Shown one piece after another: positions 5,676 to 29,973 of a stretch of 64,000 nucleotides of DNA; position 1 is the first letter of the stretch, and each line of letters starts with the position of its first letter. The DNA is taken from positions 1 to 64,000 of the IMG/VR virus record IMGVR_UViG_3300027896_000010; one strand, written 5' to 3'. Under the pieces are notes generated by a model. The model saw nothing but the letters and a program-made list of their open reading frames with translations. It had not been told where the DNA came from and did no database searches. This stretch comes from a virus. The translations under genes and the position numbers were made by a program.

Positions 5676-8600
5676 TTATACCGTGTATCTACCCTCCTGT
5701 GTATCCATGTACCGCTGGTCTAGCTGATACGGCGCTCTGTAAGGCCCCTTGCCGGGGTCAGCAGGTTTCATCTGCTTCTTCCTCAGCATCTCTATCATCT
5801 CATAAGTCCTGATATCTTCCTTGCTGATATTGGGCTTTACCTTGCTTGAATCTTCTTCGATAGGATAGTTAGGTTCTGGCTGGTATGATTGCCATGAAAG
5901 AGGCTGTATGTGCTGAGCCTGTCCCATCAATTCATCCAGTTGCTCGAATATAGGGCCTGTCGCTTCATTGTATTGTTCCATAGACCAATGCTCCGCATCA
6001 GACTTCTGATTGATAAGCTTTAGCTGATTGAACAACTCTTGCTGGGCGTCTGAAATCTTCTGCTCCATATCAAAATGCTCGTGTATCTTTTGTTGCTCTT
6101 CTGGCGAAGGAGTCACCCCATATTCTGCTATAGCTCTCTGGCTAGTCGCCTTTCGATATCTATGCTCAGTCCAGTCTACCAACTGCTCGACTTCAGGCTT
6201 ACTGATGTGCATCTCTTCTGCAATCTCATCGAATGATTTCATGCGTTGCAGAAGACTTAGCATCTGCTCCTGTTGCTCCTGAGCCTCTTCGTCTGTCTCG
6301 AAATATGCTATCTGTCTTTGACTAGCCAAAGTATCCTCCCTGCTTGCCGCTTTCTCTCTGTTACGGAGCATCTCCCATGCTTTTGGATAACTATCCGCAC
6401 CAAGGTCAAAACCAAGACCACCAACATCTATGACTTCATCTACAAAGCGCCAAGGAATAATCCCCTTGGCATAGCCATCGAATTCAAAGAAATCCCAGCC
6501 CTTGCTTCTTTCCTGTTCTACTATCTCTTCATCAGTCAAAGCTTCGTTTGTTTCAGCATCAAAATTAAGTGGATTCATGCGTTTGATATCAAGCCGTTTC
6601 TGGACTTCCTTCTGCACAGGCTCATGTTCGTAAGTATGTCCTCCCGGCTGGTCATAGTCTTCCATATAATCGTGCAACCACTTCTTAGGCATTTCCAGTT
6701 TTAACACTACTGGGTGTCCCTCTGCTGGTGGTATCTCGCCCCTGTATCCTTTGTTGTGCCAAAGTTCTTCGTGTGAGTCTTCGCCCTCTTGCTCCAGTAA
6801 CCAAGCTCTGACCCTGTAACGAATTAGACCCCCTACTTCACCACCACCCTGAGCATAAGCGGATGCCTTAGCAAAATCAGAAGTGAGATAGATTTTCCAG
6901 TCAAGCACCTGTCCCACGCCTTGTAAATATTTGCTTCGATATTCTATATCATTCTTATAAATATCCGCTGGGACATCGGCTCTAGTCAGCCCAAATTCCT
7001 TAAGCACATCATCAATCTGCTTATCTATCGGGACTGCCCTGATACCCTTGCTCTTCATGTCAGGAATAAAACTCGACCATGTGCCATGGTACATAGTGAT
7101 GGTGGCTTCCTTCTCTGGAGGAGCCTTCCAGTATTCAACTGCCAATGCTCGTTGACCCCAAAGCTGGCCCATCCCCGGCAGTTGACCCCCAAGGGGCTTC
7201 TCGTCCTTAATCAAATCCCACAGGGCGTTAGCCGCCTCATCTTTGGTGGCACAGGCTTTAGGCTCGCCTAACAATTTCCTGTCCCAAGGCAAACCCTCAA
7301 GCTCATTACAAATCCAGCCATCTTGAGTCTCTGTGAACTTGCCAATCATATAGTTACCACCTATCAGAACTTGGTCTGACTTGCTAGCGAACTTCTCGAA
7401 GATGGCGTTCTCAAGCATAGGATATACGCCCTTCTGACCAGATACCAATTGCCCAAGACTATCAGCCATCATCTCACTGAAAGACTTCTGTGTCAGATGC
7501 CCATTTTCTATCTGCTCCCGCAATGACTTATCGAGGTAATACACATATCCATGCCCCCGATAATACTTACCTTTGTCATACGGACGAAGATGTTTCTTGA
7601 CAGTCTCTTCGTAGTCTTCATAAGACTGCAAATTCCTGTCAGCATTCATAGTCCTTAACTGCCACGCAAAGTTCTCAGCCTCTTTGCTGTTATGCTCAAA
7701 TGCATGCCAGCACTCATGCCCCATTATGCTTAGCAGTTCTGGCACTGACAGGTCTCTTACGTTATCAGACAAGTAATAATTGTTGATATACATGATGTTC
7801 TTGGATGGGCTATACCAAGCCGCTCTCTGCAAGGTCTTGCCACCCTGCCGAAATGGAACATTCTTAATAGCTGTATATATCTGGTTAGGCAACCGCTTCA
7901 GAACTTCTTCCTTCAGTCGCTTCAGCTTGTCTCTGCGATAAGCACTCTCTTGTTTCTTCCACTCATGCACCTTTAAATTATACGCATCTCTCTGGTCGGA
8001 GATGGTTGGATAGTCACGCGTATTCTTCTCAAAATCCTGCAACCGTGGTGGCTGTGGTCTGCCCCCTATAAACTCAGGAGCAAGCTCTTCAACCGTACGA
8101 TATTCTTGCATCGGTTCTGGTGGAACTTCTGCTATCACTCTACGAAACTCTGCCCATTCCCCACTGGGTAGCTGAATCTCATGAAGGAACATCTCGTCCC
8201 ATCTCTTCTTCATAGTCCTTAGCGCATCTTTGCCTTCAGAGGTCAATTCGAAATCATCTTTATCTTTGATATCAAACCATCCAGACATATACCCGCGCTT
8301 TAGCGATTCCATCTTGCTGGGATTAATGCCCTGCTTCTTCATAAGATTCTCGATAGCATCAGGGTCGAAATCCATATCCATCATATTCTGCCATGTGACC
8401 CCGAAGAATGTTTGTAGATTATCTGCCCAAGTACTAAGCGTGGCATCATAGAACCACATTCCCTTATCTTTATTGTTCTCCCAATTCTCAATGTGTGTAT
8501 CGGGCTTATCTTGCAGAGAATATTCCAGTATCCCTATCTCGCCTTCAGGTATCTGCCCAAGCGCCTTAACATCTATATGGACGAGAACCGGATTGATAAC

Positions 8601-10961
8601 ACCCCCGACTTCTTCTCTAGCCTTAAGCCAGTTCTTGAATACCTGCGCGGCTCCCCACTCATCGTAAGATTGATGTCCTTCCCCCTCTGGCAATGGATAC
8701 TCATACCAACACTTGACGTACACTCCATCGTCTAGGGTGACCACATCATTCGAAGAACACGGTTCTACCGAATCTCTGGCCTCACCCTCATCTATGAATG
8801 GCCCTTTCCAGTTTTCTTCTTTGTCCTTGTCTCGCTTTATCGCATAACCATGCTCCCAAGCATCTGCATCCCATTCTTTAGAATTAAAAAATTCATCTAT
8901 ATAAGGCTTGGGCGCACCTACGCCTTCTTTGGCATACCGAATCAAGTCTTGAATGCCTATCTCGTTAGCAAAAAACCGTCTGGCTATTACCAGCGTGTCG
9001 TATATCTGGACTGCATCTTCGTAGTTGTTGGTGAATGATATCAAGTCGCCCTCTCCACCGCCCAGCCCCAATCCTTTTTCTAAGCCAATTTCGTTACGAG
9101 TCTTGAGTCCCTCCTCAAGCACCTTGCTCTTATTGGTTGTCACATGATAGAGAATCCTGCCAGCCAGCTTCCTATGAGCTTGTATTCGAGCCACCATCTT
9201 GACATCATTCCAATCGATACGGTTCGTCCTGCTGTAGAGCCAATCGACTATCTGTTGAAGCTCTTCGTACCTTGGGTCATGTGGAGTCTCCCCAATACCC
9301 GCTTCGTTAGCGGCATCACCAAGCAGATGTTCCAGCATCGGTAGGTCGATGTGCATGGAACTCACAATGTTATCAATATAGATAATCACCCAACTTAGGT
9401 TCTCTTCCTTGAGATACTGGTTCAAGAACGCAAGGTATTCTTCATACTGTGGCAGGGCTTGTTCTGCCCTCTTGGCTCTACGAGCCTCTTCTGCGTTCTC
9501 GCTATCTTTTCTCCACGATACGGAATCTTCCAGCCAACCTATGAATTCACCATACCACTTGCTCAGGTTCCTAGCCAAGTCATAGACGAATACGGTATCG
9601 CCCACATGCCTGTCCAGCCAGTCTGGGTCGAGATGTCCAGCATCCTGCATCTCATAGAATTTCTTGAGACTCTTGATGACACCTTCGGCTGATGCTATCT
9701 TGGCTACTTCTTCTCTCACCCAATTGTAGCGATTAGTCCTTGAATACAACCAGTTGATTATGGGAGCCAATTCATCAAGCAACTCATCTGAGTCTGGCAT
9801 ATCGGGGTCTTGCCACCCAGAAGGATAGACTGCATCCATTAGGAGATGGTCAAACATCGGAATGTCCACATGCATAGAATTTGCAATATTATCAATTGCT
9901 ATGACCATCCAGTTTACTTGGCTACGCCGATAGGCATTCCTTAACAACTCCAAATACTCTTTGTATTTTGAAATGCTATTTATAGCATCGTAAGCAACTC
10001 GTTTATCTTCCTTGATTCCAGCCCACTCTGGGTGTTGAGCCTTTTCCAATACATCTACTCGAAGTCTGCAAGCCGCTATCAATTTCTTGATAAATATCTC
10101 ATACCAATCAGCTAAGCTCTTTGCGAAGTCATAAATAAAAACCGTATCACTTACATGATTATCAAGCCAATCAGAGTCAAGATGCCCATCATCAAGCATC
10201 TCATAGAACTTCTTGAATGAATGTATGATGCCAGCCACAGACGATGCTATCTTCCTCTGGCTCAGAACTGCCCCTGAGAGGCTCTGAGAGCCTTCAGGAC
10301 GCCCGATACCCCCTGAGTACGAGTCAATCCACCTAGAAGCCACCATCCGCTCTGGAGTCCACACTGGCTCCCCATTCCCAGAGCGTTCTTTTATGAAATC
10401 CAACATCTGCCAAAGCTCTTTGGTAGTCGTACAGGATATGTAATCGTGGCGGTTGTAATATTCCCCCAGTTCCTTAGACATCCTTTGGTATACATCGTGC
10501 CAGACATGAACCATGTTCAGGGCATTATCCAGAGCCACAACCGCATTGGAGATATCATTATCAAAGAGCTTGGGTGGGTTCAACAGGTCATTGATATACT
10601 TCTCATAGTCTGGCAGCAGCTTTGGCAGGTCAGGGTTCTTCCAACCCTTATTCCATGTAGTATGCTCAGTAACATCATGTACCACTTGCTGGGCGCAACT
10701 CAGCCAGTCACCGAAGTATCCTTCCTTGAACCAACGATTCAAATCTATCAGGGTCGAATCGAGAAGCTTCTCTGTACCGGGGTACACTTGGAGAAGCCCA
10801 CGCTCTTCCAAATCATAGACACGTTTTATCTTGCGTATCAGGTCAGGCAGAGATACTGCTTCCAAACTAAAACTAGCCAGTTCTCGCTGGCTAGCTTGGG
10901 GGTAAGGCATCTTAACCTTTATAAGAGGTGGCGGCTTCTTCTTCCGCTTACGTTTCTTCAA
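5676..10961 (-). CDS. 1761-aa multidomain polyprotein: three related helical domains, two ART-like domains, HExxH zincin peptidase, separated by QRxIA linkers
   Basis: YHVTT..GL..ISFT and YHGT..GI..IYLTSDFAKASAYA..VVLKL ART-fold motifs; GHECWH..SEMMAD; repeated SQR(E/K/Q/A)(L/I)A motifs. Confidence 0.75.
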   Translation of the reverse strand: MKKRKRKKKPPPLIKVKMPYPQASQRELASFSLEAVSLPDLIRKIKRVYDLEERGLLQVYPGTEKLLDSTLIDLNRWFKEGYFGDWLSCAQQVVHDVTEHTTWNKGWKNPDLPKLLPDYEKYINDLLNPPKLFDNDISNAVVALDNALNMVHVWHDVYQRMSKELGEYYNRHDYISCTTTKELWQMLDFIKERSGNGEPVWTPERMVASRWIDSYSGGIGRPEGSQSLSGAVLSQRKIASSVAGIIHSFKKFYEMLDDGHLDSDWLDNHVSDTVFIYDFAKSLADWYEIFIKKLIAACRLRVDVLEKAQHPEWAGIKEDKRVAYDAINSISKYKEYLELLRNAYRRSQVNWMVIAIDNIANSMHVDIPMFDHLLMDAVYPSGWQDPDMPDSDELLDELAPIINWLYSRTNRYNWVREEVAKIASAEGVIKSLKKFYEMQDAGHLDPDWLDRHVGDTVFVYDLARNLSKWYGEFIGWLEDSVSWRKDSENAEEARRAKRAEQALPQYEEYLAFLNQYLKEENLSWVIIYIDNIVSSMHIDLPMLEHLLGDAANEAGIGETPHDPRYEELQQIVDWLYSRTNRIDWNDVKMVARIQAHRKLAGRILYHVTTNKSKVLEEGLKTRNEIGLEKGLGLGGGEGDLISFTNNYEDAVQIYDTLVIARRFFANEIGIQDLIRYAKEGVGAPKPYIDEFFNSKEWDADAWEHGYAIKRDKDKEENWKGPFIDEGEARDSVEPCSSNDVVTLDDGVYVKCWYEYPLPEGEGHQSYDEWGAAQVFKNWLKAREEVGGVINPVLVHIDVKALGQIPEGEIGILEYSLQDKPDTHIENWENNKDKGMWFYDATLSTWADNLQTFFGVTWQNMMDMDFDPDAIENLMKKQGINPSKMESLKRGYMSGWFDIKDKDDFELTSEGKDALRTMKKRWDEMFLHEIQLPSGEWAEFRRVIAEVPPEPMQEYRTVEELAPEFIGGRPQPPRLQDFEKNTRDYPTISDQRDAYNLKVHEWKKQESAYRRDKLKRLKEEVLKRLPNQIYTAIKNVPFRQGGKTLQRAAWYSPSKNIMYINNYYLSDNVRDLSVPELLSIMGHECWHAFEHNSKEAENFAWQLRTMNADRNLQSYEDYEETVKKHLRPYDKGKYYRGHGYVYYLDKSLREQIENGHLTQKSFSEMMADSLGQLVSGQKGVYPMLENAIFEKFASKSDQVLIGGNYMIGKFTETQDGWICNELEGLPWDRKLLGEPKACATKDEAANALWDLIKDEKPLGGQLPGMGQLWGQRALAVEYWKAPPEKEATITMYHGTWSSFIPDMKSKGIRAVPIDKQIDDVLKEFGLTRADVPADIYKNDIEYRSKYLQGVGQVLDWKIYLTSDFAKASAYAQGGGEVGGLIRYRVRAWLLEQEGEDSHEELWHNKGYRGEIPPAEGHPVVLKLEMPKKWLHDYMEDYDQPGGHTYEHEPVQKEVQKRLDIKRMNPLNFDAETNEALTDEEIVEQERSKGWDFFEFDGYAKGIIPWRFVDEVIDVGGLGFDLGADSYPKAWEMLRNREKAASREDTLASQRQIAYFETDEEAQEQQEQMLSLLQRMKSFDEIAEEMHISKPEVEQLVDWTEHRYRKATSQRAIAEYGVTPSPEEQQKIHEHFDMEQKISDAQQELFNQLKLINQKSDAEHWSMEQYNEATGPIFEQLDELMGQAQHIQPLSWQSYQPEPNYPIEEDSSKVKPNISKEDIRTYEMIEMLRKKQMKPADPGKGPYRAPYQLDQRYMDTQEGRYTV

Positions 10962-11329
10962 ATCCCTAACACCTTTTTTATCTTGTCATGCAAACTGTAA
11001 ATCGCCTTCTTCAACCTCATAGAGTCCATTCTTTGACCCCATGCATTATTCCTAATCTCCCAATCACTTATATCGCCCAATTGCTCAAGCCTGTCCAGCA
11101 AATCCTCATTGACCAGACGATACTTGGATAGCGTCAAGACTCCATTTGCCACGATAGGCAGACAGTCTTTATAATCCTCTGGGATATCCATTCCATTATC
11201 TTCCCAACCCTCTTCAGGAACATTGATGAAATATTCATACATAGCAGGTAATGCCCACTCCAACACTACCTCTTCACTGGGAGTTATCCTAGGTATGACT
11301 TTGCGCTCTGCTATCTTGCGCTGGTTCAT
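10958..11329 (-). CDS. acidic hypothetical protein with MNQRKIA leader
   Basis: starts MNQRKIAE; overlaps flanking genes by 4 nt. Confidence 0.7.
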   Translation of the reverse strand: MNQRKIAERKVIPRITPSEEVVLEWALPAMYEYFINVPEEGWEDNGMDIPEDYKDCLPIVANGVLTLSKYRLVNEDLLDRLEQLGDISDWEIRNNAWGQRMDSMRLKKAIYSLHDKIKKVLGI

Positions 11330-11625
11330 CCTTCTTCCTTTAGCATCTTCTTCCCCTTCTGTTCCATCTCGTCCAGAAGCGTATAGTAATTGGGAAGCTC
11401 ATTCAGATGAGCCAGAGCTATCTTAGCGGTCAGCACAGGGTCGTCATTGGTGATATTGGTGCCGGAGTTAACCCTGCCATGCTCTAGCTCGACATTGATG
11501 CCCATATAGAACTCGTTGGCATCGTACTCGTCGGTCAAGCCCATGCCCTCCAGAACATCTGAGGCTTCTTCTTCGGAGAAGTCTTCCTTAGGCTCTTTAT
11601 CTTCTGCTATCTTGCGCTGATTCAT
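11326..11625 (-). CDS. DUF5661-like protein with MNQRKIA leader
   Basis: GINVELEHG..KIALAHLNELPNYYTLL motif; start moved to the ATG at 11625 (MNQRKIAE). Confidence 0.7.
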   Translation of the reverse strand: MNQRKIAEDKEPKEDFSEEEASDVLEGMGLTDEYDANEFYMGINVELEHGRVNSGTNITNDDPVLTAKIALAHLNELPNYYTLLDEMEQKGKKMLKEEG

Positions 11626-12079
11626 CTTTATACACTCCCACATCATGATAGCGCCAATCCCGTTCTGCCGCCCCACACTTAATATGAACAATATCTATCT
11701 CGACTTCATTTTGGCTAGCCAATGCTTCAACCTCTTTAAACAAATCAAACTCTTCATCAGGCGTTAATTGGTCAAATGGGTTTAATGTCGCAGTCAATGT
11801 CCTTAAGAGATAGCCAGCATCATGCGAAGAATCTATAACCCCCGGCATAATCAACCCTGTATTTTTCAAATCGATATAGAGCGCGTTCTGTTGTTCAGTT
11901 GTCACAGAACTACGATTTCGGCCCTTGGAATTATTCACACACACAAACTCTACCTGAATAAATTGCTCAGGACATTTCTCCCAACCACTATCAGACTCAA
12001 CTGCATATTTATCATCAATATATTGAAGTAAATCAGGAGCAATATGTTTTGTGTATCTCGCTATCCTGCGCTGGTTCAT
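11597..12079 (-). CDS. hypothetical protein with MNQRRIA leader
   Basis: starts MNQRRIAR. Confidence 0.65.
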   Translation of the reverse strand: MNQRRIARYTKHIAPDLLQYIDDKYAVESDSGWEKCPEQFIQVEFVCVNNSKGRNRSSVTTEQQNALYIDLKNTGLIMPGVIDSSHDAGYLLRTLTATLNPFDQLTPDEEFDLFKEVEALASQNEVEIDIVHIKCGAAERDWRYHDVGVYKDESAQDSRR

Positions 12080-12168
12080 TACTCGTTTCTCCCCGCGATA
12101 AACCCTGCGACAAATCCCACCAAGAACGCACTAACCACTACTAGGAATACGGTAATAGGTGTTGCCAC
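12079..12168 (-). CDS. 29-aa single-pass membrane peptide (below ORF-track cutoff)
   Basis: GTG start, MATPITVFLVVVSAFLVGFVAGFIAGRNE; fills the gap, stop overlaps the next ATG. Confidence 0.5.
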   Translation of the reverse strand: MATPITVFLVVVSAFLVGFVAGFIAGRNE

Positions 12169-13467: not shown

Positions 13468-13476
13468 TAGATGTCC

Positions 13477-13725: not shown

Positions 13726-13731
13726 CTCTCC

Positions 13732-14561: not shown

Positions 14562-14942
14562 CTAAAACATACGAATTTTGTTGCGGCAAATAGTATCGTA
14601 GAAGACCGAAATGAATATCCTCAGATAATCTTCTTGGTCCATAGGCCAAGCGTCAAAGCCCATGACAATGATGTGGGCAATCTCATGGATAAGAGTCTCA
14701 ATCTTCTCGGAATAAGGAGCGTCTGCATTGATGTATATGGTATGTTTCTCGTCATCAACTCGCCCATAGCATCCCTCTACTGATATCGCAAGACTGCTCA
14801 GTTCCTCTATGTCCATCAGGGGTTCTATCTTGTCACGGTCTATGACTATAATTTCAAGTTCTTTATGCCCCTCTGGGACTTCTTTGACTTTCCATTTGTG
14901 AGATAAAATTATGATTTCGGTGTAAGGCAGTGCCTTGGACAT
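14562..14942 (-). CDS. small HExxH zinc metallopeptidase-like protein
   Basis: CYG....IYI....ETLIHEIAHII motif. Confidence 0.7.
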   Translation of the reverse strand: MSKALPYTEIIILSHKWKVKEVPEGHKELEIIVIDRDKIEPLMDIEELSSLAISVEGCYGRVDDEKHTIYINADAPYSEKIETLIHEIAHIIVMGFDAWPMDQEDYLRIFISVFYDTICRNKIRMF

Positions 14943-15239
14943 TTAATAATCTCCTTCAGCTATCATCCTTTGAGTTATCTTCTTCCCCTCGATAGCTTTA
15001 ACATAATACAAGCCAAACGAGCTTGTTGAGTGATACCAAGCCTCTGCCTCATAGCCTATCTGGACATCTTGGGGAACCCCAGCCGCCCAAGCTTCGCCCT
15101 TGCGAGTTTGGAATCTGCCTTGAGTTACTCCCGGCCCCTCCCACACATATTCATGTTTTTCGATATCAACAAGCGTCACAATACCCATGAACCGATTGTC
15201 ATAAGCTGAGCGCCTTAGCCCTTCTTCATGCTCTCGCAC
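14943..15239 (-). CDS. hypothetical protein with C-terminal TQRMIAE motif
   Basis: 98-aa ORF. Confidence 0.5.
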   Translation of the reverse strand: MREHEEGLRRSAYDNRFMGIVTLVDIEKHEYVWEGPGVTQGRFQTRKGEAWAAGVPQDVQIGYEAEAWYHSTSSFGLYYVKAIEGKKITQRMIAEGDY

Positions 15240-19486: not shown

Positions 19487-19666
19487 TTATTTCGACCTGT
19501 GATGGTCATCTCCCTCTGCTTCTGCTATTTCTCGTTGAGTTTTCTTGCTCGGCTTATCACCTATCCAGACTATTTCATCTTCCTCTTCTTCATCGAACGG
19601 CCCTCTGGCACATGGCAGGTTCGCTGGTGTGGCAGGATATGTTTCTATCCATCCTTGTTTCTTCAT
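19487..19666 (-). CDS. 59-aa acidic protein with TQREIAE motif (below ORF-track cutoff)
   Basis: ATGA-coupled to the upstream stop; MKKQGWIETY...KKTQREIAEAEGDDHHRSK. Confidence 0.55.
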   Translation of the reverse strand: MKKQGWIETYPATPANLPCARGPFDEEEEDEIVWIGDKPSKKTQREIAEAEGDDHHRSK

Positions 19667-19893: not shown

Positions 19894-20268
19894 CTATAAC
19901 ACCTTGACCAGAATCACGACCAGAACGCCCGATAACAATGTGATAGCACCACCCATAATCCATATGGCTCCCCTGTAGAAATTTATGGTGCTTTCCAAGT
20001 CAGCAATGCGCCTCACAAACCCTTCGGGTGAGAACAACAGCCTATCATATTCTTCAAATTTCTGCCTATACGGACAAAGCTCCCCTCTATGCACTGGGCT
20101 ATCAATAACTTGCGCCTTAGTATCCAAGTCATTCGCAAACTTCTCAAGCTTTATCAGTCTATCGTTTATGCTCTTCAATTGCTCAGCCAGTGTAGCCGTT
20201 GTCAGAGCCAACTGCTCTGCCGCCGAAGTCAGCTTATCCAGTGTTGGTTTATATTCCTCAAACCCCAT
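19894..20268 (-). CDS. coiled-coil protein with C-terminal transmembrane helix
   Basis: heptad-rich N-terminus; GAIWIMGGAITLLSGVLVVILV. Confidence 0.6.
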   Translation of the reverse strand: MGFEEYKPTLDKLTSAAEQLALTTATLAEQLKSINDRLIKLEKFANDLDTKAQVIDSPVHRGELCPYRQKFEEYDRLLFSPEGFVRRIADLESTINFYRGAIWIMGGAITLLSGVLVVILVKVL

Positions 20269-20782
20269 GCGCCTGACTCTCCTTCAAAATCAAAGTAACC
20301 TCTTCCATAGCAGATTGCGCTTGGTCATATGCATCCCCAAGCTTGGCGAATACTTCGATAAGTATCTTCTGGAACTCTTTTTCTTTGGCTACTTCTGCTG
20401 TCGCCGCTACGACATCAATAAGTTCCTTGGGACTGGTCGTCTTGGGGAGAAACTTATCAACACCAATGTTAATTGCTTTTAAGAGGATATCTTTTTCGGT
20501 GTTATTGGATACAACTATTATACCTATATCAGGGCGTTGCGCTTTTGCTTTTTGGGCAAACTCCAGCCCTGCCGCCCTATCAGGAGATTCGTCTGGAAAG
20601 GCAAGGTCTAGGATGACAACGTCAAAGCGTTCATCCCTTATCTGTTTTTCTGCCTCAGACAGGGTGGTACAGACATATGTAACACAACCCGCATCATGCA
20701 GAATCTCCTCTAACAAGAAATCAAAATCATTATCGTCGTCTATAATCAGAACATCATCATCTATCCTAATTTTCGTGTCCAT
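20258..20782 (-). CDS. response regulator receiver-domain protein
   Basis: VLIIDDD acidic pocket, VVILD phospho-acceptor, IIVVS, FLPK lysine. Confidence 0.88.
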   Translation of the reverse strand: MDTKIRIDDDVLIIDDDNDFDFLLEEILHDAGCVTYVCTTLSEAEKQIRDERFDVVILDLAFPDESPDRAAGLEFAQKAKAQRPDIGIIVVSNNTEKDILLKAINIGVDKFLPKTTSPKELIDVVAATAEVAKEKEFQKILIEVFAKLGDAYDQAQSAMEEVTLILKESQAHGV

Positions 20783-21629
20783 TCTCTTTCACTTCCTCTA
20801 AAATAGCATTAGCCCTGTCCATGTTTCTCTGTAACCTGTGAAACAATCCATTAGATGCAAGGATATCGTGTTCCAGTTGAACGGCTCTGGTAATATCCTC
20901 GCCCGTACTAATCGTCGCAATAATCTTGCCATCCCTGTCCCTTATCAGACTGTTATACCAAGACATAGATATTTGTTTACCATTGCAATTCAATATCGTA
21001 TTCTCGTAAGCAGAACTGGTCGCATCTGACACGCCAGAAATAAGCCTTTGGAATTCCAGCTTCACGCACTCTCTCTCATCTTCAGGGACAAAACAATTAA
21101 ACCAGTTATGACCGATAATATCTTCCCTAGAACATTCCAGTATTGCAAGCCCCTTATTGTTAATATCTATTACCGTTTCATCGTGCTGGATTACTATCAT
21201 AAAAACTGGAGCCATATAAAAATATGAATGAGCCATCGAATAGCCATTGCCGAAAACTTCTTTCTGCATCAACTGATAAGACATATCTCTGAATATGCCC
21301 CACATCCCTATAGGATTTCCATCGTCATCTTTTATCAACCACACTCGAAGGTTAACTGGGAATATAGTGCCATCCTTGCGTATATATGCTTTCTCGTAAG
21401 GGTCTGCATGCCCTTTTGTCATTATCTGTTCTCTTACAATCTTCTCTTCAAAACTATGCCATTGCTCTGGAGTTAGGTCTTGATAGGTCAACTTTTTCAA
21501 CTCGTCCAGAGAATAGCCCACCATTGTTTGATACGCCCTATTGGCGTCCATGATATGCCCCTCCATATCAGTCAATAGAATCCCATCTAAACTGGTTTCA
21601 AACATATGCTGGTATCTTGTGTCCATCAC
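20766..21629 (-). CDS. tandem PAS/PAC-domain protein without a kinase domain
   Basis: two PAS-PAC repeats (ILLTD..G.I..AN; YIRKDGTIFPV; IIG.NWF; GEDIT). Confidence 0.85.
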   Translation of the reverse strand: MMDTRYQHMFETSLDGILLTDMEGHIMDANRAYQTMVGYSLDELKKLTYQDLTPEQWHSFEEKIVREQIMTKGHADPYEKAYIRKDGTIFPVNLRVWLIKDDDGNPIGMWGIFRDMSYQLMQKEVFGNGYSMAHSYFYMAPVFMIVIQHDETVIDINNKGLAILECSREDIIGHNWFNCFVPEDERECVKLEFQRLISGVSDATSSAYENTILNCNGKQISMSWYNSLIRDRDGKIIATISTGEDITRAVQLEHDILASNGLFHRLQRNMDRANAILEEVKENGHEN

Positions 21630-22087: not shown

Positions 22088-22111
22088 AATTCCTCCTTGT
22101 CTATTTCCACT

Positions 22112-22137
22112 AAAAAAGCCTCTTTCTCAGAGGCTTA
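22112..22137 (-). terminator. intrinsic terminator closing the leader-gene cluster
   Basis: AAGCCTCT-gagaa-AGAGGCTT followed by TTTT on the minus strand. Confidence 0.75.
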
Positions 22138-22165
22138 CGAAAACCGACTTGTCTTTATCTAATAC

Positions 22166-22390: not shown

Positions 22391-22406
22391 TTTCTTCCTC
22401 CTATGA

Positions 22407-22700: not shown

Positions 22701-22701
22701 G

Positions 22702-22974
22702 TTATTCTCCTTGACTTAAGTCGCTCTGAACGTTCTCGCATATCTCCTGACACAAATCCCACAGGGCATCTTCTACTGACGCTGTGCGACACTCCAATGG
22801 TATAACCTGAACAGTCGCCTCGAACACATCGTATACGAAATCATCGAGCGACCCCATGTCTTCATACAAAGTCAGAGCATAGTTCTCGGTATCGCTAGCG
22901 AGGCGTTCGATATCAATCGCGTCTTCGTCTATCTTGAACTGCGCTACGAGTCTTTGAGATGGCTTGAGTTGCAT
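22702..22974 (-). CDS. acidic protein with SQRLVA (motif B) N-terminus
   Basis: MQLKPSQRLVAQ. Confidence 0.65.
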   Translation of the reverse strand: MQLKPSQRLVAQFKIDEDAIDIERLASDTENYALTLYEDMGSLDDFVYDVFEATVQVIPLECRTASVEDALWDLCQEICENVQSDLSQGE

Positions 22975-22984
22975 TACATCCCTC

Positions 22985-23320: not shown

Positions 23321-23712
23321 TACCATTCCTCCTCTAATCCGATTTCTTTTAACAGGTCGGGAACCGAAGTCATCTGGTCTGGGTCTTCTGCCCATACACG
23401 CAGATGCGGAATTATATATGCATCCATCCTTGCCGCAGTATTTGAAGAGCCTACATACTCTGCCGATTCAAACTGTGACTTCACAGCCTCTGCTAGTTCT
23501 ATAGCCTCATAAATTTTTTCCTCAAGCTCTTTGATGGCACCAGCCAGTTCTTCTACTTCAGTGTCTCGATTTTCTCTTTCCTCTTCACCAAGTTCGTCAT
23601 CTTCGTCATCAAACTCGTCGTCTGCAATATGCTCAATATGCATAGCACTCTTCACAACTCGTTCCACCATGTCCTCAAGCTCTTCTATTTCATAGCAATC
23701 AAAATCTGACAT
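23320..23712 (-). CDS. acidic protein with divergent leader-A
   Basis: EELEDMVERVVKSAM. Confidence 0.65.
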   Translation of the reverse strand: MSDFDCYEIEELEDMVERVVKSAMHIEHIADDEFDDEDDELGEEERENRDTEVEELAGAIKELEEKIYEAIELAEAVKSQFESAEYVGSSNTAARMDAYIIPHLRVWAEDPDQMTSVPDLLKEIGLEEEW

Positions 23713-23723
23713 CCTAATCCCTC

Positions 23724-24428
23724 CTACATAAAACCGATATCCTGTTCGACTGTAATAGGCTCGTCCTTAGGGCTAAGCAATTGCTGAAGTTTCTCAGGCG
23801 GTGCCAAATCAAGTGGTTCCGTATTTACAAAATCCATCAACTGCAAGGCATCCAGCATTACCTTGGTGGTACGTTTCCTACCACCCTCGTCCCATTCTAC
23901 TATGGCAAAATTGGGAGTAATCTCTATCACCGTTATCCTCTGACCCTTGGATACTCGCACTGGAAACCCATTGGGGTATCTGACGGTAGCGGTGTCGCCC
24001 TCTTCTAGTTCCCTGAATGCCAGCTTAGCTACGTGTTGTACTACTTTATTAAGGTCTTCAATATAATTGTCCACTGCAGATAACAGGTCGGCTTGGACAT
24101 CTCCATTCTCTAACAGTTCCTCTGGAAGACCATCGTATTTCTTAAGCAACCGAATGATATCAAATGGGATAGTGGGAAAAAATGCCGTAGCGGGGATTCC
24201 CTTGAGCTTGTTATAGGTGAACATCAATGCTGGCTTTACCCTGCCCATTTCTACATCCCCACCTATCAATGCTTTCAACAACGTATCCTTAATCTCTCTC
24301 AAGGCATAAGTTGAATCTATCAATGCTGGATAGTATTCGTCTATGGAATGCTGGGGCGGGGGCAACGCTTTGGGCTTCGACTCCTCTATTGCTTCTGCTA
24401 TGACTTCTTTCAGCGAATAATACCGCAT
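23724..24428 (-). CDS. hypothetical protein, possible C-terminal SH3-like barrel
   Basis: 234 aa; GDTATV..VSKGQRITVIEITPNFAIVEW. Confidence 0.6.
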   Translation of the reverse strand: MRYYSLKEVIAEAIEESKPKALPPPQHSIDEYYPALIDSTYALREIKDTLLKALIGGDVEMGRVKPALMFTYNKLKGIPATAFFPTIPFDIIRLLKKYDGLPEELLENGDVQADLLSAVDNYIEDLNKVVQHVAKLAFRELEEGDTATVRYPNGFPVRVSKGQRITVIEITPNFAIVEWDEGGRKRTTKVMLDALQLMDFVNTEPLDLAPPEKLQQLLSPKDEPITVEQDIGFM

Positions 24429-24452
24429 TGCTGTCCCCCCTAGGGCTGCCTT

Positions 24453-24995
24453 TTATATCAGCCCTAATTCAACTAACCAAGATGGATATCCATGAGGACA
24501 GGCCGTGCAGTCTGGTTCCACGCGACACCCATCTGTGGCTTTGGCTACACCATCGTACATCCATTTCTCCATCGTCTTGATGCTGGGCTGTTTGGTCTTG
24601 GGAGTCTTCTTCTGCCGATGCTCTCTCAAAAATTCCCCTGCTTCCTCTGGAGAGATATCCGCAAGAACTTCCTTGACCACCTTACTGATTATCTTCGCAA
24701 GCCTATCTTCATCCATGGTGACTTCCCCCTCGTTATAGTCATACAACTTATCATCAACCCAGTATCTAGGGTCGCTATAGTCTAGCCCTGACTTCAACCC
24801 GCCCTCATATTGCTTGCTACATTCCAACAGAGCCTTCTTCAATTGATGAACCTGCTGTTCTAAATCCGTTATCTTATTGATATAAGCAGTGCATTGGTCT
24901 TTGTGATACATCTTCATCTCGTCCATCTTATGAAGAACTTCTCCAACAGAAGGGTCTTTGCTTAGTGGGGGCAGACCACCTGATTTCTCTTCCAT
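24453..24995 (-). CDS. two-part ORF with internal leader-A start at 24716 and C-terminal Cys/His motif
   Basis: GAGGGG-N-ATG MDEDRLAKIISKVVKEVLA; DGCRVEPDCTACPHG. Confidence 0.7.
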   Translation of the reverse strand: MEEKSGGLPPLSKDPSVGEVLHKMDEMKMYHKDQCTAYINKITDLEQQVHQLKKALLECSKQYEGGLKSGLDYSDPRYWVDDKLYDYNEGEVTMDEDRLAKIISKVVKEVLADISPEEAGEFLREHRQKKTPKTKQPSIKTMEKWMYDGVAKATDGCRVEPDCTACPHGYPSWLVELGLI

Positions 24996-25294
24996 TACTC
25001 TCTCCAGTCTATATTCTTTCTCTCTTCAGTCTTTCTGGTTTTTATGAGAAAGACTTCTAGGGCATCATAGACAGCAGTCAATCTTTCTTTTATCTCCATG
25101 GATTCAGCGATGCCAGCTTCCCCAGAAATCTTCTCCAGCTCATCCTCGGCTTCACCTATCAGATTAAGAGCTTTGTGGGTAGCCACATCATCTTCCTCGC
25201 TCCAGTCTGAAGGATAGGCTCCCTCTTCGGTATCCCAAGCCAAAACCTCTTTCACCACTTTTGATATCACTTCTTCAAGTCTTTGCTCATCCAT
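24995..25294 (-). CDS. leader-A acidic protein
   Basis: MDEQRLEEVISKVVKEVLA. Confidence 0.75.
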   Translation of the reverse strand: MDEQRLEEVISKVVKEVLAWDTEEGAYPSDWSEEDDVATHKALNLIGEAEDELEKISGEAGIAESMEIKERLTAVYDALEVFLIKTRKTEERKNIDWRE

Positions 25295-25295
25295 G

Positions 25296-25724
25296 TTATT
25301 CCTCCGGCTTCACAGGTCGCCGTCTCTCTTGCATCCTCTTGCTCTGCTCTTCGAGGAACCATTCGTAATTATCCTTTGAGGCTCTCGCCCTGAATCGGAG
25401 ATTGTTAACAGCATCCTCAACCTTTGGCTTGAAGTCCTTGACGGTACGAGATACATCCTGAAGGTTGCCTATGACAGAATACCTGTAACTCATATACTCC
25501 CACTGTACCGTATTGGAATTGTTATGAAGATTCTCTTCAATGGTATCAGCTAGCTCAGCGACACTTTCTAGCTGAGTCACAAGAGCCTCTAGCTCATCGG
25601 TTACATCAGCAACCCTGCCTATCATGCCACCCATATCATCTCTAGCATCATACTTGAGTGCCATCTTCTTACCACCCAGTACTTCTGCGACTGCTTCTCG
25701 GACTATCCTTTCAATATCATCCAT
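25296..25724 (-). CDS. leader-A coiled-coil protein
   Basis: MDDIERIVREAVAEVLG..KKMAL. Confidence 0.72.
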   Translation of the reverse strand: MDDIERIVREAVAEVLGGKKMALKYDARDDMGGMIGRVADVTDELEALVTQLESVAELADTIEENLHNNSNTVQWEYMSYRYSVIGNLQDVSRTVKDFKPKVEDAVNNLRFRARASKDNYEWFLEEQSKRMQERRRPVKPEE

Positions 25725-25734
25725 GGCTCTCCCC

Positions 25735-26010
25735 TTAGTGCTTGTGGTGATGACGTCTCATGTGTTGCCTATCGGCTCTCGCTTTCGCCCTGCGCGAAGC
25801 CCTGTTAGGCTCTGTGTTATTAACTTTCTCCTTGGGGAACTTCACCCATACGGAGCGCCCCTTATGAACTATAATTTTGCCCAGAGGATTATCGTTATCT
25901 GGCGGTGGAACCATTAACAAATTGGCATCGTATCCAAATTCTTTTCCTGATTCTGCATCTTGCATTGTGTTCTCCCTAGTGTGAAATAAAGGCAACGTGC
26001 CTAGCACCAT
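25735..26010 (-). CDS. hypothetical protein
   Basis: true start probably MQDAESG, after the upstream stop. Confidence 0.5.
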   Translation of the reverse strand: MVLGTLPLFHTRENTMQDAESGKEFGYDANLLMVPPPDNDNPLGKIIVHKGRSVWVKFPKEKVNNTEPNRASRRAKARADRQHMRRHHHKH

Positions 26011-27301
26011 ATCTCGTCAGGCGCTCGTTTCTGGGTAACCAGCAGAACAGACAAAGCTCTACACCCTTTGGCCCCATCCCTTCTCCGCATCCTCCTGTCT
26101 CTTTATACGGACACATGAAAACTTCACTCGGCTTTATCCGGTCTCTCTTACCCAGCCCCTGATTCAATACATTGAGAGTCTGTTGAAGAGTGGCTCCTCC
26201 TTTGGGAATTATCAATGCCAATCCATCTACGTTAGGATTCTTGAGGAAAGACCTTATCTTTTCATTCGTACTGCCTTCATAATAAGTAGATTCTTCTTTC
26301 CAATTGACCTTGTCTTTCTTAGGCTCCATTTTTGGTAAACCAGTCGCCTTGTCATACACTATCTCATTTTGGTGATTGGGATTTTTGTTTCTCACAGGTT
26401 GCATTATCACTTCGCCAGTTTCTGGGTCTATGGATTCTGCTTCGTCATAGAAATTAGTAGGCAATTCATAATTAGGGTCAATGCTTCCGTTGAATACCAT
26501 GTTCTCTGGTTTATCCCTCATGTTCTCCAACAGCTTGTATACCTTGGTGAAAGCCATGAACCTGACCTGTGGGCATCCCCTTGCTACATCCATCCATTTA
26601 TAGAAATAGTCCTTATCATAGAAGTCTCCAGACTCATGTATCCTAATGATATCGACGCCATCTTTGTAAGCTTGCCTTATGCCAGTAATCATCAGGCTTG
26701 TGAAATTGGAGTCAAGAGATGTATAGTATCTATCCATCCTGTAAGGAAGAGATTGGTTATACATCCCCTCTGGCTTTCTGGCATAACAAAATTCATGACA
26801 AAACTCAGTTGATTCTGGACAAGTCTTCCAGCATGGAAGACACCACACCCCTATCCTCGCGTCTAACTTACGGTTACCATATTTCAATAAATCTTTTGAG
26901 GCCACAAGTACTCTCCCGCAAGGGCTTAGCATCTTATCCCCTGTGAACTTATCACTTCCCTTGGCAGGGTCATATTTATCCCTCTTCTGGGTGCGAGGCT
27001 TCTTCCCCCTATCAGTAGTTTGCTGTAAGTAAAGCCCCCTTTGCTCGTCTTTCTTTACTTTGAATTTCGATTCTAAGGTCATCCCAAGGCTAGACATATC
27101 GATATCATCTATGACCATAAACCCATTTTGCTTCGCTACTCCTATGAAGTCACCAACTGAGTGGATAGCTCTATGGACTATGTTCTTAAGCTTATCCCAT
27201 AGTCCAGCCTCTCTTATAATTTCATCAGCAATATGGGAAGCTATGACTTCAATGTTATCGCTTATAACCTTAGCTATAACATCATCTATCCAGTCATCCA
27301 A
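25976..27301 (-). CDS. Gp88-like (radical-SAM-like Cys cluster) protein with leader-A
   Basis: CLPCWKTCPESTEFCHEFCYA, IRIHESGDFY..Y..KW, FMAFTK; leader MDDWIDDVIAKVISDNI. Confidence 0.75.
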   Translation of the reverse strand: MDDWIDDVIAKVISDNIEVIASHIADEIIREAGLWDKLKNIVHRAIHSVGDFIGVAKQNGFMVIDDIDMSSLGMTLESKFKVKKDEQRGLYLQQTTDRGKKPRTQKRDKYDPAKGSDKFTGDKMLSPCGRVLVASKDLLKYGNRKLDARIGVWCLPCWKTCPESTEFCHEFCYARKPEGMYNQSLPYRMDRYYTSLDSNFTSLMITGIRQAYKDGVDIIRIHESGDFYDKDYFYKWMDVARGCPQVRFMAFTKVYKLLENMRDKPENMVFNGSIDPNYELPTNFYDEAESIDPETGEVIMQPVRNKNPNHQNEIVYDKATGLPKMEPKKDKVNWKEESTYYEGSTNEKIRSFLKNPNVDGLALIIPKGGATLQQTLNVLNQGLGKRDRIKPSEVFMCPYKETGGCGEGMGPKGVELCLFCWLPRNERLTRYGARHVAFISH

Positions 27302-27312
27302 TTGACTATCTC

Positions 27313-28536
27313 CTATTTCTTCTCTTCCTTCTTTTCCTTTACGGTCTCCTTCGCTTTCTCGGCAGAAGGAGTGGCACTCTTGCCCATCTTGTCTACTACC
27401 TCGTCATGCACCCAGTCGAGAATATCGTCTGCATACTCACGCACGACATCATAGACCAGAGCCTCGTCGCCCTTCTCTTCCTTCGCCCATCGTGCGACAT
27501 CGGTCATGAAGGATTGAATGTCTCCAAACACATATCCACTGTCTTGGTCAACTGGCATAGAATCCCCTACATCCAGCGTCTCTGGGAGCGTAGCTGGCTC
27601 CTCAGGGGCTTCTGGAGCCATCGGAGCCTCTGCCCCTATGTCCATGTCACCCTCGTCGCCCTTACCGGCAGGTGGGACGGGAGGGCCTTCAGGCTCAGCC
27701 GCTTCCTTCTCAATCTCCTGCTTAACCAACCTCGCTATTAACTTTACAAGCTCTTCGTCTTTCATGCTGTTCTCCTTTATGTAAGCTGATTTTTCTATAG
27801 GCCAGTAATTTCCACCTGATTCTTTCATATCTTTTTCTGGAACAGTTTGCATAAATCTTTTTACTACGACTGGATTATTGTCAGCACACGTTAACATATC
27901 TTCATCTTTAAACATTATGCAAACTCCATTACTGGAATTGCCTTTACTAGAAGTTAAGTAAGCCATCATTGTAGGTACGTAAGGAACAAGTTCGTCACCT
28001 TCTGGATGATAACCCCCAAAATCCAAATTTTTCTTTTTGTAAGTTGTTAGAATTCTCTTTATCTTTACTGAAGTAGGAGCGTACCAAACCCACGCACCTC
28101 TTCCAGTAATATGGTCATACTCTACTCCTGTATAAACCCAAGGTGTGCTGGGGTCAGTTAACATCTCTTGCTCTGCCAATTCCAACTTATTCAACCATGC
28201 TTGCCTTATGTCGCTATGTTCGTATTGCTTATCTCTATCAATAGGCCCAAACCTCTCTTCGTCCATCCTATCCATGTACGCATCTTCAGATTCATCTTCA
28301 CGCATACCATCTGCCAGCACCTCCTTGACCACCTTTGCTACTACCTGTGCAATCCTCTCTTCATCCATGATTCTCTCCTTTATCTTGCTAGCTTTATCAT
28401 GCGAGAACTCACTCCCGCAGTCCTGACAGCGGAACCATTCCTTAGCTCCAAGAGTACCCAGCGGGACTCCTATGCCTGAGCAATACGGGCAACTGGGATT
28501 CTCCAGCGGTTCATCTAACTCATCATAATCTTCCAT
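27313..28536 (-). CDS. composite ORF: zinc ribbon plus two internal leader-A units (starts 28368 and 27765)
   Basis: CPYC..CQDC; MDEERIAQVVAKVVKEVLA; MKDEELVKLIARLVKQEI; each preceded by AAGGAG. Confidence 0.7.
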   Translation of the reverse strand: MEDYDELDEPLENPSCPYCSGIGVPLGTLGAKEWFRCQDCGSEFSHDKASKIKERIMDEERIAQVVAKVVKEVLADGMREDESEDAYMDRMDEERFGPIDRDKQYEHSDIRQAWLNKLELAEQEMLTDPSTPWVYTGVEYDHITGRGAWVWYAPTSVKIKRILTTYKKKNLDFGGYHPEGDELVPYVPTMMAYLTSSKGNSSNGVCIMFKDEDMLTCADNNPVVVKRFMQTVPEKDMKESGGNYWPIEKSAYIKENSMKDEELVKLIARLVKQEIEKEAAEPEGPPVPPAGKGDEGDMDIGAEAPMAPEAPEEPATLPETLDVGDSMPVDQDSGYVFGDIQSFMTDVARWAKEEKGDEALVYDVVREYADDILDWVHDEVVDKMGKSATPSAEKAKETVKEKKEEKK

Positions 28537-28537
28537 T

Positions 28538-29422
28538 CTATTTCCCCCTCTTCAGCCAACTGAACCAGCCCTTCTTTACCTTGCCCTTACGGCAATAGTT
28601 GCTCGTCCTCAGTTTGAATTGCTTATAGATTGCACAGTTCTTGCATATGCAATGCGAAGGTGTCGGTGTCGGCGTAGGTGTTGGAGTCGGTGTAGGTGTA
28701 GGTGTGGGTGTCGGAGTTGGCGTAGGTGTAGGTGTAGGAGTAGGAGTAGGAACTGGAATCGGCACTGGCTGCACAGCAGCCCATGCTTCTCCCGGCGATT
28801 CGATACCATTTAACAGCTTCTGGAAATCAGAGATGAGGATTTTGAACTTGCCCTGCAAGCCCCAAGTCGTTCCCCATGAATTAACAGCGTCCAGATACAT
28901 ACTATCCTCACCGTTCTGGAACCAGCAGTGACCCCCCTGAACCGAACCAGTCGGCTTGATAACGCCATTCACTGGGTCAAACATATCGCTAGTCCACTCG
29001 GTTCCCACGAGAACAGATCCATGTTTTTGAAGCCAGTCCACGATTTCTGTCATGGTATTCAGCTTGGCGTAGCCACTTATCCAGCCCTTGTCTTTTGCTA
29101 CCTTCAATCCGTCTCTCACATAAGCCCCATCTTCGGCTCCCGGCTCTCCCTCCAGTATTTTGATATCAAGATAAAAGCCATGGCACTGTTCCCCGGAGAG
29201 ATGCGGGTCGATGTGATTCTCATCATCACAATTCAGCATACCTCCAGTGCCATATGCCACACACTCATTCGTGCTTCCTTGGTCAAGGATTTCGGTATCC
29301 GACCAGATAACTGGGACGGCTATCCCCTCGTCTATCATCGATTCTAATTGCTTGACGGTATAGTCCCTTGGGTCATCGACAAGGGGCTTTCTGCCTAGAC
29401 CGAACTGCTTATCCCCACTCAT
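28538..29422 (-). CDS. papain-like (C1) cysteine peptidase with Pro-Thr linker
   Basis: DQGSTNEC, GGHC, NSWG.TWG. Confidence 0.85.
   Translation of the reverse strand: MSGDKQFGLGRKPLVDDPRDYTVKQLESMIDEGIAVPVIWSDTEILDQGSTNECVAYGTGGMLNCDDENHIDPHLSGEQCHGFYLDIKILEGEPGAEDGAYVRDGLKVAKDKGWISGYAKLNTMTEIVDWLQKHGSVLVGTEWTSDMFDPVNGVIKPTGSVQGGHCWFQNGEDSMYLDAVNSWGTTWGLQGKFKILISDFQKLLNGIESPGEAWAAVQPVPIPVPTPTPTPTPTPTPTPTPTPTPTPTPTPTPTPSHCICKNCAIYKQFKLRTSNYCRKGKVKKGWFSWLKRGK
28665..28772. repeat. (Pro-Thr)n coding tandem repeat
   Basis: degenerate 6-nt repeat GG(T/A/C)GT(A/C/T/G) encoding roughly 18 PT units. Confidence 0.9.
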
Positions 29423-29973
29423 TTTTTTACTCCTTTAAATCCCTTATAACCCATCTCAACTTCACCCTTGTCTTCATCCTTGTCTCCACCCTCATCTGCT
29501 TTAGCCCATTCTCTTTCCTGCTCTGGCCCTTGCCCCGGCCCTTGACTAGTAAGCATCTTTATAGTTACCAGACGTCTCCTTAATATCTGCAAACGAGCCT
29601 TAACATGGGCATCGGGGTTAGATGTCATAGTCGTATAAACATCAATAACCCTTATCAGGTCACTAGCCATATCATCATTAAGCATCAACGGCCTATGATT
29701 GCCTAGTTCATATTCCTCGAATGCTTCTTCCTCTGCGCCTTCTGGGGGTTTCTCTTCGGCGAACTCGTCTTTGACCTTATGCAATGAACGCCGACCCTCA
29801 TAAGGGAACCGTCTCTCTATCTCATCGATGTCACCAAAATAAGTACTCACCCCAAGAGCCTCTTCTAGAGCCGACCTGACCTTAAGTCTGAGGGCTTCGC
29901 GGTCTTCATCATCAACGTCACGCACTTCCATGTTGCTCTCCTGTTCTATGCCTTCGATTTTACGCTGGTTCAT
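29419..29973 (-). CDS. acidic protein with MNQRKIE leader and a leader-A-like segment
   Basis: ATGA-coupled start at 29973; DDEDREALRLKVRSALEEALG. Confidence 0.65.
   Translation of the reverse strand: MNQRKIEGIEQESNMEVRDVDDEDREALRLKVRSALEEALGVSTYFGDIDEIERRFPYEGRRSLHKVKDEFAEEKPPEGAEEEAFEEYELGNHRPLMLNDDMASDLIRVIDVYTTMTSNPDAHVKARLQILRRRLVTIKMLTSQGPGQGPEQEREWAKADEGGDKDEDKGEVEMGYKGFKGVKK

Follow-up and report, generated by a model that had tools for sequence, protein, structure and literature searches.

An alanine-ending QRx[I/L]A peptide at module joints and gene starts of an uncultured phage: a candidate proteolytic processing site

In phage T4, ten residues of the capsid targeting sequence (CTS) are enough for loading, cutting by gp21 depends on residues 8 and 10, and this protease processes IPI-III and Alt, which are internal proteins (PMC9026906, which cites Mullaney and Black 1996). 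Head and ejection proteins of phiKZ, 201phi2-1 and SPN3US are cut at S/A-x-E or A-x-E (PMC10052503, PMC9026906). For the long polyvalent proteins of phages and conjugative elements, processing of the chain by a peptidase module has been suggested (Iyer et al. 2017, PMC5512222). The present analysis concerns a short peptide, [S/N/T/G]QRx[I/L]A, that recurs in a stretch of 64,000 nucleotides (the window), which is the first 64 kb of one 193,437-bp contig of an uncultured phage (IMG/VR record IMGVR_UViG_3300027896_000010). The peptide is found above all in a 1761-residue multi-module protein (P0001) and at the starts of small genes beside it. It is almost certainly both a joint between modules and an N-terminal tag, and it is a candidate site of proteolytic processing.

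A joint between modules and a tag at gene starts

Over all 57,876 coding residues of the genome, and with chance expectation computed from residue frequencies, the strict pattern [S/N/T/G]QRx[I/L]A has 11 copies (0.22 expected). Five of these copies lie in the 1761-residue protein, where 0.007 are expected and the maximum in 5000 shuffles was one. Gene starts reading MNQR number three by script, or four counting the copy at 29973, against an expectation of 0.016. The pattern was fixed post hoc, after the data had been seen, which inflates the enrichment figures, but this choice cannot explain their size. All copies named in the original prediction were found, all on the minus strand, and two degenerate ones are added here, RRVIAE at residues 940-945 of the large protein and SQREIY in the 71-residue gene 5455-5670. 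Its view that the motif is non-random and sits at N-termini and domain junctions is borne out by these counts and by homology breakpoints that fall on the copies.

The peptide, rather than its DNA, is what selection preserves, since synonymous codons differ among copies (CAG/CAA for Gln; CGC/CGA/CGT/AGA/AGG for Arg; GCA/GCT/GCG for Ala). Linker-like stretches rich in Gly, Ser and Pro precede the motif, and the residues immediately ahead of QRx[I/L]A are usually Ala-Ser or an aromatic residue followed by Gly. Across 20 copies, the residue between Arg and Ile/Leu (P3, if the chain were cut after Ala) varies (K6, A5, E2, Q2, R2, and M, L and S), and the residue after Ala is Glu in eight and Ser in three. 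A Glu-specific, T4-like cut after I-A-E was considered and rejected, as Glu is present there in those eight of 20 copies only. A count over 148 further homologue proteins gave no enrichment of QRx[I/L]A (5 observed, 3.8 expected), so the motif is lineage-specific.

The large protein is a string of modules bounded by motif copies. A basic leader (residues 1-29) is followed by module A (30-233), two repeats (240-420 and 425-592), an ADP-ribosyltransferase-like (ART-like) module (602-815) with a tail to about residue 939, a zincin module (945-1274), a second, YHGT-type module (1275-1546), a small helix-turn-helix (HTH)-like module (1553-1606) and a conserved C-terminal tail. Relatives were sought by a word-indexed search in 5.8 billion clustered proteins and, separately, with HMMER in 1.8 billion representative proteins, and apart from the protein itself a single one was found. 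This protein, P0003, has 999 residues, is encoded on a 4.1-kb contig from run SRR15116522, and is 66% identical to P0001 across the aligned parts. It starts, from a TTG codon, with NQRRIV and carries nine motif copies in all, the other eight being AQRAIA, SQRKIA, NQRAIA, GQRKIA, SQRALA, SQRQIA, SQRSIA and one degenerate form. Both proteins have the repeat module, the zincin module, the small HTH-like module and the C-terminal tail, while the intervening modules differ. The zincin module, at 65% identity, is the best-conserved long module, and motif copies flank it in both phages.

Comparison of the two related phages shows modules gained, lost, fused or split at the motif, and all five points at which homology between the aligned proteins starts or stops fall on motif copies. 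The linker PEGSQSLSGA-SQRKIA (GASQRKIA in P0003) is shared, with a different module behind it in each phage. A common VKMVA continues as RIQAHRKLAG in P0001, where the ART-like module comes next, and as KKNQRAIAE in P0003, where the zincin module comes next. The zincin module ends at GQRALA in P0001 and at GQRKIA in P0003, after which different modules follow. SQRSIA in P0003 leads directly into the shared tail, where P0001 inserts about 75 residues. The first 52 residues of P0003 consist of three motif copies with spacers of 12-20 residues, as if the modules between them had been removed. The three tagged small genes that adjoin P0001 are absent at the P0003 locus, where a glycosyltransferase gene and a gene for a 36-residue membrane peptide lie directly ahead of the polyprotein. 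Since the peptide occurs both as a tag on separate genes and as a joint within a chain, it marks the start of a module either way.

Homologues of the ART-like module also place a module edge at the motif. This module has 327 library matches at E<=0.001, many in polyvalent proteins of 2000-5900 residues. Almost all of these matches begin at query position 600-604, 0-4 residues behind the Ala of HRKLAG, and more than 300 homologues begin 1-3 residues behind HRKLAG itself. Homologues that stand alone start with MSSRVIYHVTT, MPKKLWHVTT or MPPVLYHVTT. These edges indicate that downstream modules start directly after the motif.

Other modules are less readily assigned. The zincin module falls below the Pfam peptidase threshold (M13, E 0.04), the Atlas points, with a score (0.90) that is borderline, to the zincin, Wss1 and M90-like families, and a search of solved structures by sequence gave no significant match to it. 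For the second, YHGT-type module, a local search against the collected homologues returned the relative only. Sub-threshold HTH matches (E 0.03-0.07) cover residues 1565-1601, between two motif copies. A single-sequence structure model of residues 901-1761 was unusable (pLDDT 38.6), so the location of the motif in linkers was judged by the homology comparison instead. Of all short stretches, the C-terminal tail (window 5676-5900, the last ~75 residues, ..SWQSYQPE.. to ..QEGRYTV) shows the highest conservation between the two phages; it belongs to no known family and is a candidate anchoring or loading signal.

Tagged genes, scattered copies and genomic setting

The coordinates of the large protein, its joints, the tagged genes and the scattered copies are collected in Table 1.

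Table 1. Window coordinates of the large protein, the motif copies and the genes that carry them (all on the minus strand).
Feature	Position	Strand	Remark
1761-aa multi-module protein P0001	5676-10961	minus	TTG start overlaps upstream stop
SQRELA, residues 24-29	10875-10892	minus	directly behind Lys/Arg-rich leader
SQRKIA, residues 234-239	10245-10262	minus	start of repeat 1
Degenerate KIA (KIAS 421-424), residues 421-423	9693-9701	minus	start of repeat 2; aligns with RKIAS of repeat 1
Degenerate HRKLA (HRKLAG 596-601), residues 596-600	9162-9176	minus	widespread ART-like domain (LYHVTT...) begins 3-4 residues behind
Degenerate RRVIA (RRVIAE 940-945), residues 940-944	8130-8144	minus	zincin module start; aligns with KNQRAIA of the relative
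HECWH (HExxH), residues 1082-1086, zincin-like module	7704-7718	minus	motif and surroundings conserved in the relative
GQRALA, residues 1269-1274	7140-7157	minus	zincin module end
SQRQIA, residues 1547-1552	6306-6323	minus	module behind common to both phages, modules ahead differ
SQRAIA, residues 1607-1612	6126-6143	minus	~75 extra residues behind before shared tail
160-aa gene, starts MNQRRIA	11597-12079, tag 12059-12079	minus	
99-aa gene, starts MNQRKIAE	11326-11625, tag 11605-11625	minus	
123-aa gene, starts MNQRKIAE	10958-11329, tag 11309-11329	minus	
MNQRKIE at possible start of 184-aa gene 29419-29973	29953-29973	minus	weakest N-terminal copy, Glu for Ala
TQRMIA, four residues before stop of gene 14943-15239	14958-14975	minus	
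TQREIA near C-terminus of 59-aa gene 19487-19666	19523-19540	minus	
SQRLVA, residues 6-11 of 90-aa gene 22702-22974	22942-22959	minus	weak, Val for Ile/Leu
SQREIY behind Lys-rich leader, 71-aa gene 5455-5670	5596-5613	minus	degenerate; SQRDIY in the relative

The three adjacent tagged genes and the gene for the large protein are translationally coupled, the 123-residue gene being joined to both neighbours through ATGA and TTGA overlaps. The near-identity of their first 23 nucleotides, claimed in the original prediction, holds at 19-22 of 23 positions. This similarity begins exactly at the ATG, the ribosome-binding regions being unrelated, and independent gene callers of public collections agree on the MNQR starts at 12079, 11625 and 11329. 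In the 99-residue product, the tag is followed by an acidic linker and a DUF5661 domain at residues 34-90, and this protein has a weak match to a profile named head maturation protease. Behind the tag, the four MNQR-tagged proteins are otherwise unrelated (21-26% identity in forced alignment).

The gene at 29973 is the least certain of the four. A downstream ATG with a better Shine-Dalgarno sequence gives a 170-residue form, which one gene caller prefers, and the 184-residue MNQR form is also called by the gene callers of public collections. A word-indexed protein search with its product returned only itself. Directly downstream of it lies a papain-like peptidase gene (28538-29422), and an M78/DUF6782-like HExxH peptidase gene (14562-14942) starts directly after the stop of the motif-bearing gene 14943-15239. 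The local context of the copy in the 22974 gene reads PSQRLVA. In the window between 22166 and 44512, about 25 proteins begin with an amphipathic leader (MDEERLEEIISKVVKEVLG-like), some variants of which (the 39196, 40388 and 43763 genes) contain R-[VM]-I-A-E, overlapping the core of the motif.

IMG/VR classes the contig as linear, and CheckV estimates its completeness at 95%. Nearly all genes of the phage are on the minus strand. The head module is at the far end of the contig, with the portal gene (178645-180990) followed by an HNH endonuclease gene and the prohead protease gene, and the major capsid protein is encoded at 170661-171668. The capsid protein and the protease share 30-41% identity with their counterparts in cluster C mycobacteriophages (Myrna, ScottMcG, I3) and in Gordonia phages. 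The polyprotein gene lies on the same strand as, and directly upstream of, tail-fibre-like genes, and the head module would come next if the contig ends were joined. A second contig (L005, JGI sample 3300003852, 10.2 kb) encodes an identical large protein (1761/1761 residues), so the phage was present in at least two samples. A search of the phage collection for near-identical DNA of the region gave no match, IMG/VR and JGI metagenome contigs yielded no relatives of the large protein or its zincin module, and the tag DNA pattern had no match (0) in IMG/VR. Elsewhere in the window, a double-PAS protein (287 residues) is encoded beside a response-regulator receiver protein (174 residues) at 20258-21629.

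Candidate cutters of the joint

The prohead protease, which the original prediction expected elsewhere in the genome, is encoded at 176622-177566 and matches phrog_18299 at E 3.8e-20. A structure model built from a 15-sequence alignment (pLDDT 76.9) resembles T4 gp21 (5jbl; Z 11.2, rmsd 2.9, 143/165 residues aligned) and the varicella-zoster virus protease (Z 7.0), and carries an attached C-terminal helical bundle. The modelled head protease thus has the T4 gp21/herpesvirus assemblin fold; a sequence search of solved structures with the protease gave nothing significant. Within the gp21-like fold, the protease family (alignment A3) has an invariant Cys-x-x-Cys...Cys-x-His set (C186, C189, C200, H202), which looks like a zinc ribbon and is absent from T4 gp21.

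Joints of a related kind are found among the head proteins. Two large genes beside the portal encode module strings with [A/G]SRKTA and xKTA joints. RK[T/I/L]A occurs 13 times in the genome (2.6 expected), and every copy belongs to the head polyproteins, the capsid protein, the protease, the large protein or two of the tagged genes. The capsid protein begins MARERKTA and the N-terminal region of the protease contains SFRKLA, sharing the RK[T/L]A core with the motif and not its QR. The head module of the relative phage was recovered from a 32-kb contig, and one of its head polyproteins mixes ASRKTA, AGRKTA, ASRRTA, ASRRVA, TSRKIA and ASRKIA. Only the Gln separates the last of these from ASQRKIA in the effector polyprotein, and aromatic-Gly prefixes are common to both forms (WGQR and YGQR; FGRK and WGKK). 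From these likenesses, QRx[I/L]A looks like a dialect of the head-type ASRKTA joint, with one extra Gln and Ile or Leu for Thr.

The same signature extends to more distant phages. Myrna gp97 (L004:1740-5375) bears the annotation tape measure, yet its first ~200 residues can be aligned with the prohead proteases, with matches that include GYLYTVVRAIS.., SMG and CSACGN. This protein is in fact a protease fused to a long scaffold-like region, and both LASRRKTAG and TASRRVAA occur in it. In more distant members of the protease family, ASRTAA stands behind the catalytic domain, preceded at a distance of about ten residues by a conserved K-x-A. Taken together, the Ala-ending basic joints of the head polyproteins, of Myrna gp97 and of these distant members look like the substrate signature of the protease lineage. 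A search of the literature on Bxz1-type capsid processing found nothing relevant.

Several side observations concern the head genes and KTA. In the 148 homologue proteins, KTA occurs 95 times (43 expected); this concerns large polyvalent proteins of unrelated phages (P0006, P0017, P0020, P0052, P0104, P0108, P0117, P0139, P0142 and P0146), and the tripeptide often stands 5-15 residues ahead of the first ART-like strand (..KTA....LYHGT). KTA-type joints may therefore be widespread well beyond the phage under study. The Myrna capsid protein starts MTLPTA, about where the capsid protein studied here would begin if cut behind RKTA. The portal gene of the relative phage (L007:10001-13573) encodes 1190 residues, against 781 here, with weak intein and LAGLIDADG matches, and is probably interrupted by an intein. 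In the studied phage, the HNH endonuclease gene between portal and protease is at 177557-178219.

It is probable that the joint is a site of proteolytic processing, whichever enzyme cuts it. That the prohead protease is the cutter is a serious candidate reading, to which we give slightly less than even confidence. Under this reading, the 1761-residue protein would be loaded into the head as a single chain and then diced into enzymes and small domains by the protease encoded at 176622-177566. Cutting would take place at or just after the invariant Ala of the joint, and herpesvirus assemblins, which share the fold, cut after Ala. The 7-residue tag on the small proteins would be an entry-and-removal signal comparable to the 10-residue T4 CTS. 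The original prediction of a prohead protease cut after the final Ala thus stands in part: a gp21-fold protease is present, and Ala-ending joints occur in the head polyproteins and the Myrna fusion. Its choice of cutter is less secure, since the Gln form never occurs in head proteins and the HExxH module of the chain itself is an equally available cutter.

Several observations weigh against cutting by the head protease. The phage is uncultured, and both cutting and packaging are predictions from its sequence. In both phages the Gln form is limited to the polyprotein and a few small genes, and in neither do the head polyproteins ever carry the Gln. That this separation is kept over ~34% sequence divergence suggests two distinct recognition events. 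Position P3 is Lys in nearly all head joints, whereas it varies among QRx[I/L]A copies. At the C-terminal copies (TQRMIAE-GDY-stop, and TQREIAE with 11 residues behind it), a cut would remove almost nothing. In the protease model FRKLA is part of a helix, and in the model of the large protein, which is of low confidence, four motif copies are at helix ends, not in coil. Capsid proteins that are 93% identical (genome 170661-171668 and L007:19455-20441) differ only at the extreme N-terminus, which reads MARERKTA-GVDTLPEIPQ here and MAKELTNA-LPQ in the relative, so that the RKTA tag is not kept. No MuF, portal-fused or other known head-anchoring domain was matched in P0001 with Pfam or PHROG. A predicted complex between the protease (residues 1-240) and the N-terminal 40 residues of the DUF5661 protein, tag included, scored 0.00 against a mark of 0.32 and is neutral on binding.

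Because the Gln form is kept apart from the head form in both phages and co-occurs there with the zincin, the polyprotein's own zincin-like module (HECWH) is a live rival cutter, acting before packaging or after injection, although we regard such self-processing as unlikely. The phage would then have two protease/site pairs, and Ile/Leu could take the P1' position (QRx↓[I/L]A), which is the arrangement of thermolysin-type enzymes. The conservation of the zincin module and its flanking by motif copies would fit this, and gluzincins prefer a hydrophobic P1', which the invariant hydrophobic residue would suit. Two other motif-bearing genes stand directly upstream of the M78-like and papain-like peptidase genes, and autoproteolysis of polyvalent proteins has been proposed (PMC5512222). 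Against this, the zincin assignment is sub-threshold in Pfam and borderline in the Atlas, no third zinc ligand was identified in the module, and HExxH-type domains may instead be effectors against host proteins. The likeness to head joints, with its shared prefixes, would also have to be coincidence or common descent. A combination of both cutters is unlikely as a whole. In it, KTA joints would be cut by the gp21-fold head protease and QRx[I/L]A joints by the internal zincin, one cargo set would be diced in the head and the other released on a different schedule, for example only after injection, and the QRx[I/L]A joint would in addition be the point of module swapping, fusion or splitting.

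As improbable as self-processing, in our judgement, is an uncut functional tag, a docking or addressing element for scaffold, portal, protease exosite or ejection, with the chain staying whole. In its favour, removal of seven residues alone seems pointless at the N-termini of stand-alone proteins, C-terminal copies exist, and Q, R, I/L and A favour helix, in which the low-confidence model (pLDDT 38.6) also puts them. Asn at the second position keeps the initiator Met under the Met-aminopeptidase rule, and Asn follows Met in 5/5 N-terminal copies, hence a fixed length before QR. Yet up to nine copies per chain, one at every module boundary, and the three copies in a row in the relative with only spacers between them, are expected of a cutting site and not of a docking site; the downstream modules also begin right after the Ala, with the linker-like stretches before the motif. 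Module gain, loss, fusion and fission exactly at the motif, along with the near-identical tags of the three adjacent genes, would suit a recombination scar, in which the joint is microhomology for module exchange and the peptide has no function. This reading is very unlikely: codons for the same residues differ among internal copies, homologous exchange over a mere 15-18 nt would need a very short match, and the invariant residues are kept in both phages though the surrounding protein is ~66% identical. Finally, [S/T]QRxIA resembles the start of the second helix in many HTH domains, with a superficial likeness to SQRELA and SQREIA of HTH proteins, and weak HTH matches occur in the C-terminal part of the large protein. 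Chance or an HTH fragment is scarcely credible as an explanation, and both were rejected: the motif counts exclude chance, and the HTH matches (residues 1565-1601) lie between two copies, not on them, no copy having a turn and recognition helix behind it.

Implications and comparison with known systems

If the joints are cut, one gene would deliver about eight separate proteins into the host, among them two ADP-ribosyltransferase-like enzymes, a metallopeptidase and a small DNA-binding module. New modules could be added by placement behind a 6-residue peptide. Cutting would also extend the "tag plus cutting site" logic of T4 and phiKZ, which is Glu-ending, to an Ala-ending code and to Bxz1/Myrna-type heads, and would make it simple to predict, in such genomes, where mature proteins end and which cargo is injected. 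With its fused and split forms, the pair of related phages clearly illustrates natural interconversion between a polyprotein and an operon of tagged genes, and a short portable tag or joint of this kind would be useful for loading foreign proteins into phage heads.

The T4 CTS resembles the present tag as a short N-terminal peptide (10 residues in IPIII, 7-8 here) on unrelated proteins. The four tagged genes and the polyprotein of the relative share the start MNQR[K/R]I. In both systems the peptide ends at the cut position, a predicted one in the studied phage, and the protease has the same modelled fold (Z 11.2). However, T4 cuts after Glu in (L/I)-x-E, whereas here, judging from the sequence alone, Ala is last, with Arg at P4 and Gln at P5. 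The T4 signal is also an N-terminal propeptide of single proteins, and here the joint is repeated among up to nine modules. The phiKZ-type phages are similar in using one short motif across many head-borne proteins, with several sites per protein, and self-cleavage of the protease is counted among the likenesses. Their motifs, in contrast, end in Glu, were defined by mass spectrometry and mostly serve to remove N-terminal propeptides, whereas here a chain of enzymes would be diced.

Polyvalent proteins are like P0001 in being long chains of unrelated enzyme-like modules (ART-like, zincin) encoded beside virion genes, and P0001 has several unrelated effector-type domains (ART-like, HExxH, YHGT-type and HTH-like). 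Unlike the present case, they are defined in PMC5512222 by their domains, not by a conserved joint peptide. The ASRKTA/KTA joints of the studied phage and of Bxz1/Myrna-type phages are closer to the motif, since both end in Ala behind a residue that is beta-branched or aliphatic, have basic residues at P3/P4, are preceded by Ala-Ser or aromatic-Gly, and stand at module joints as well as N-termini. The motif differs from them in its extra Gln, in Ile/Leu for Thr and in its variable P3, and in neither phage are the two forms ever mixed in one protein.

Herpesvirus assemblins cut at maturation and release sites of the form (V/L/I)-x-A↓S. The protease of the studied phage is predicted to share their fold and their cutting after Ala, and Ser follows the Ala in 3 of 20 copies. 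Assemblin sites differ in needing an aliphatic P3 and a Ser at P1'; the motif has an invariant Ala, a P3 that varies or is basic, and Glu at P1' in 8 of 20 copies. What sets the present system apart from those described is an Ala-ending motif with an invariant Gln-Arg, repeated as a joint between enzyme modules and coexisting with a second, related motif.

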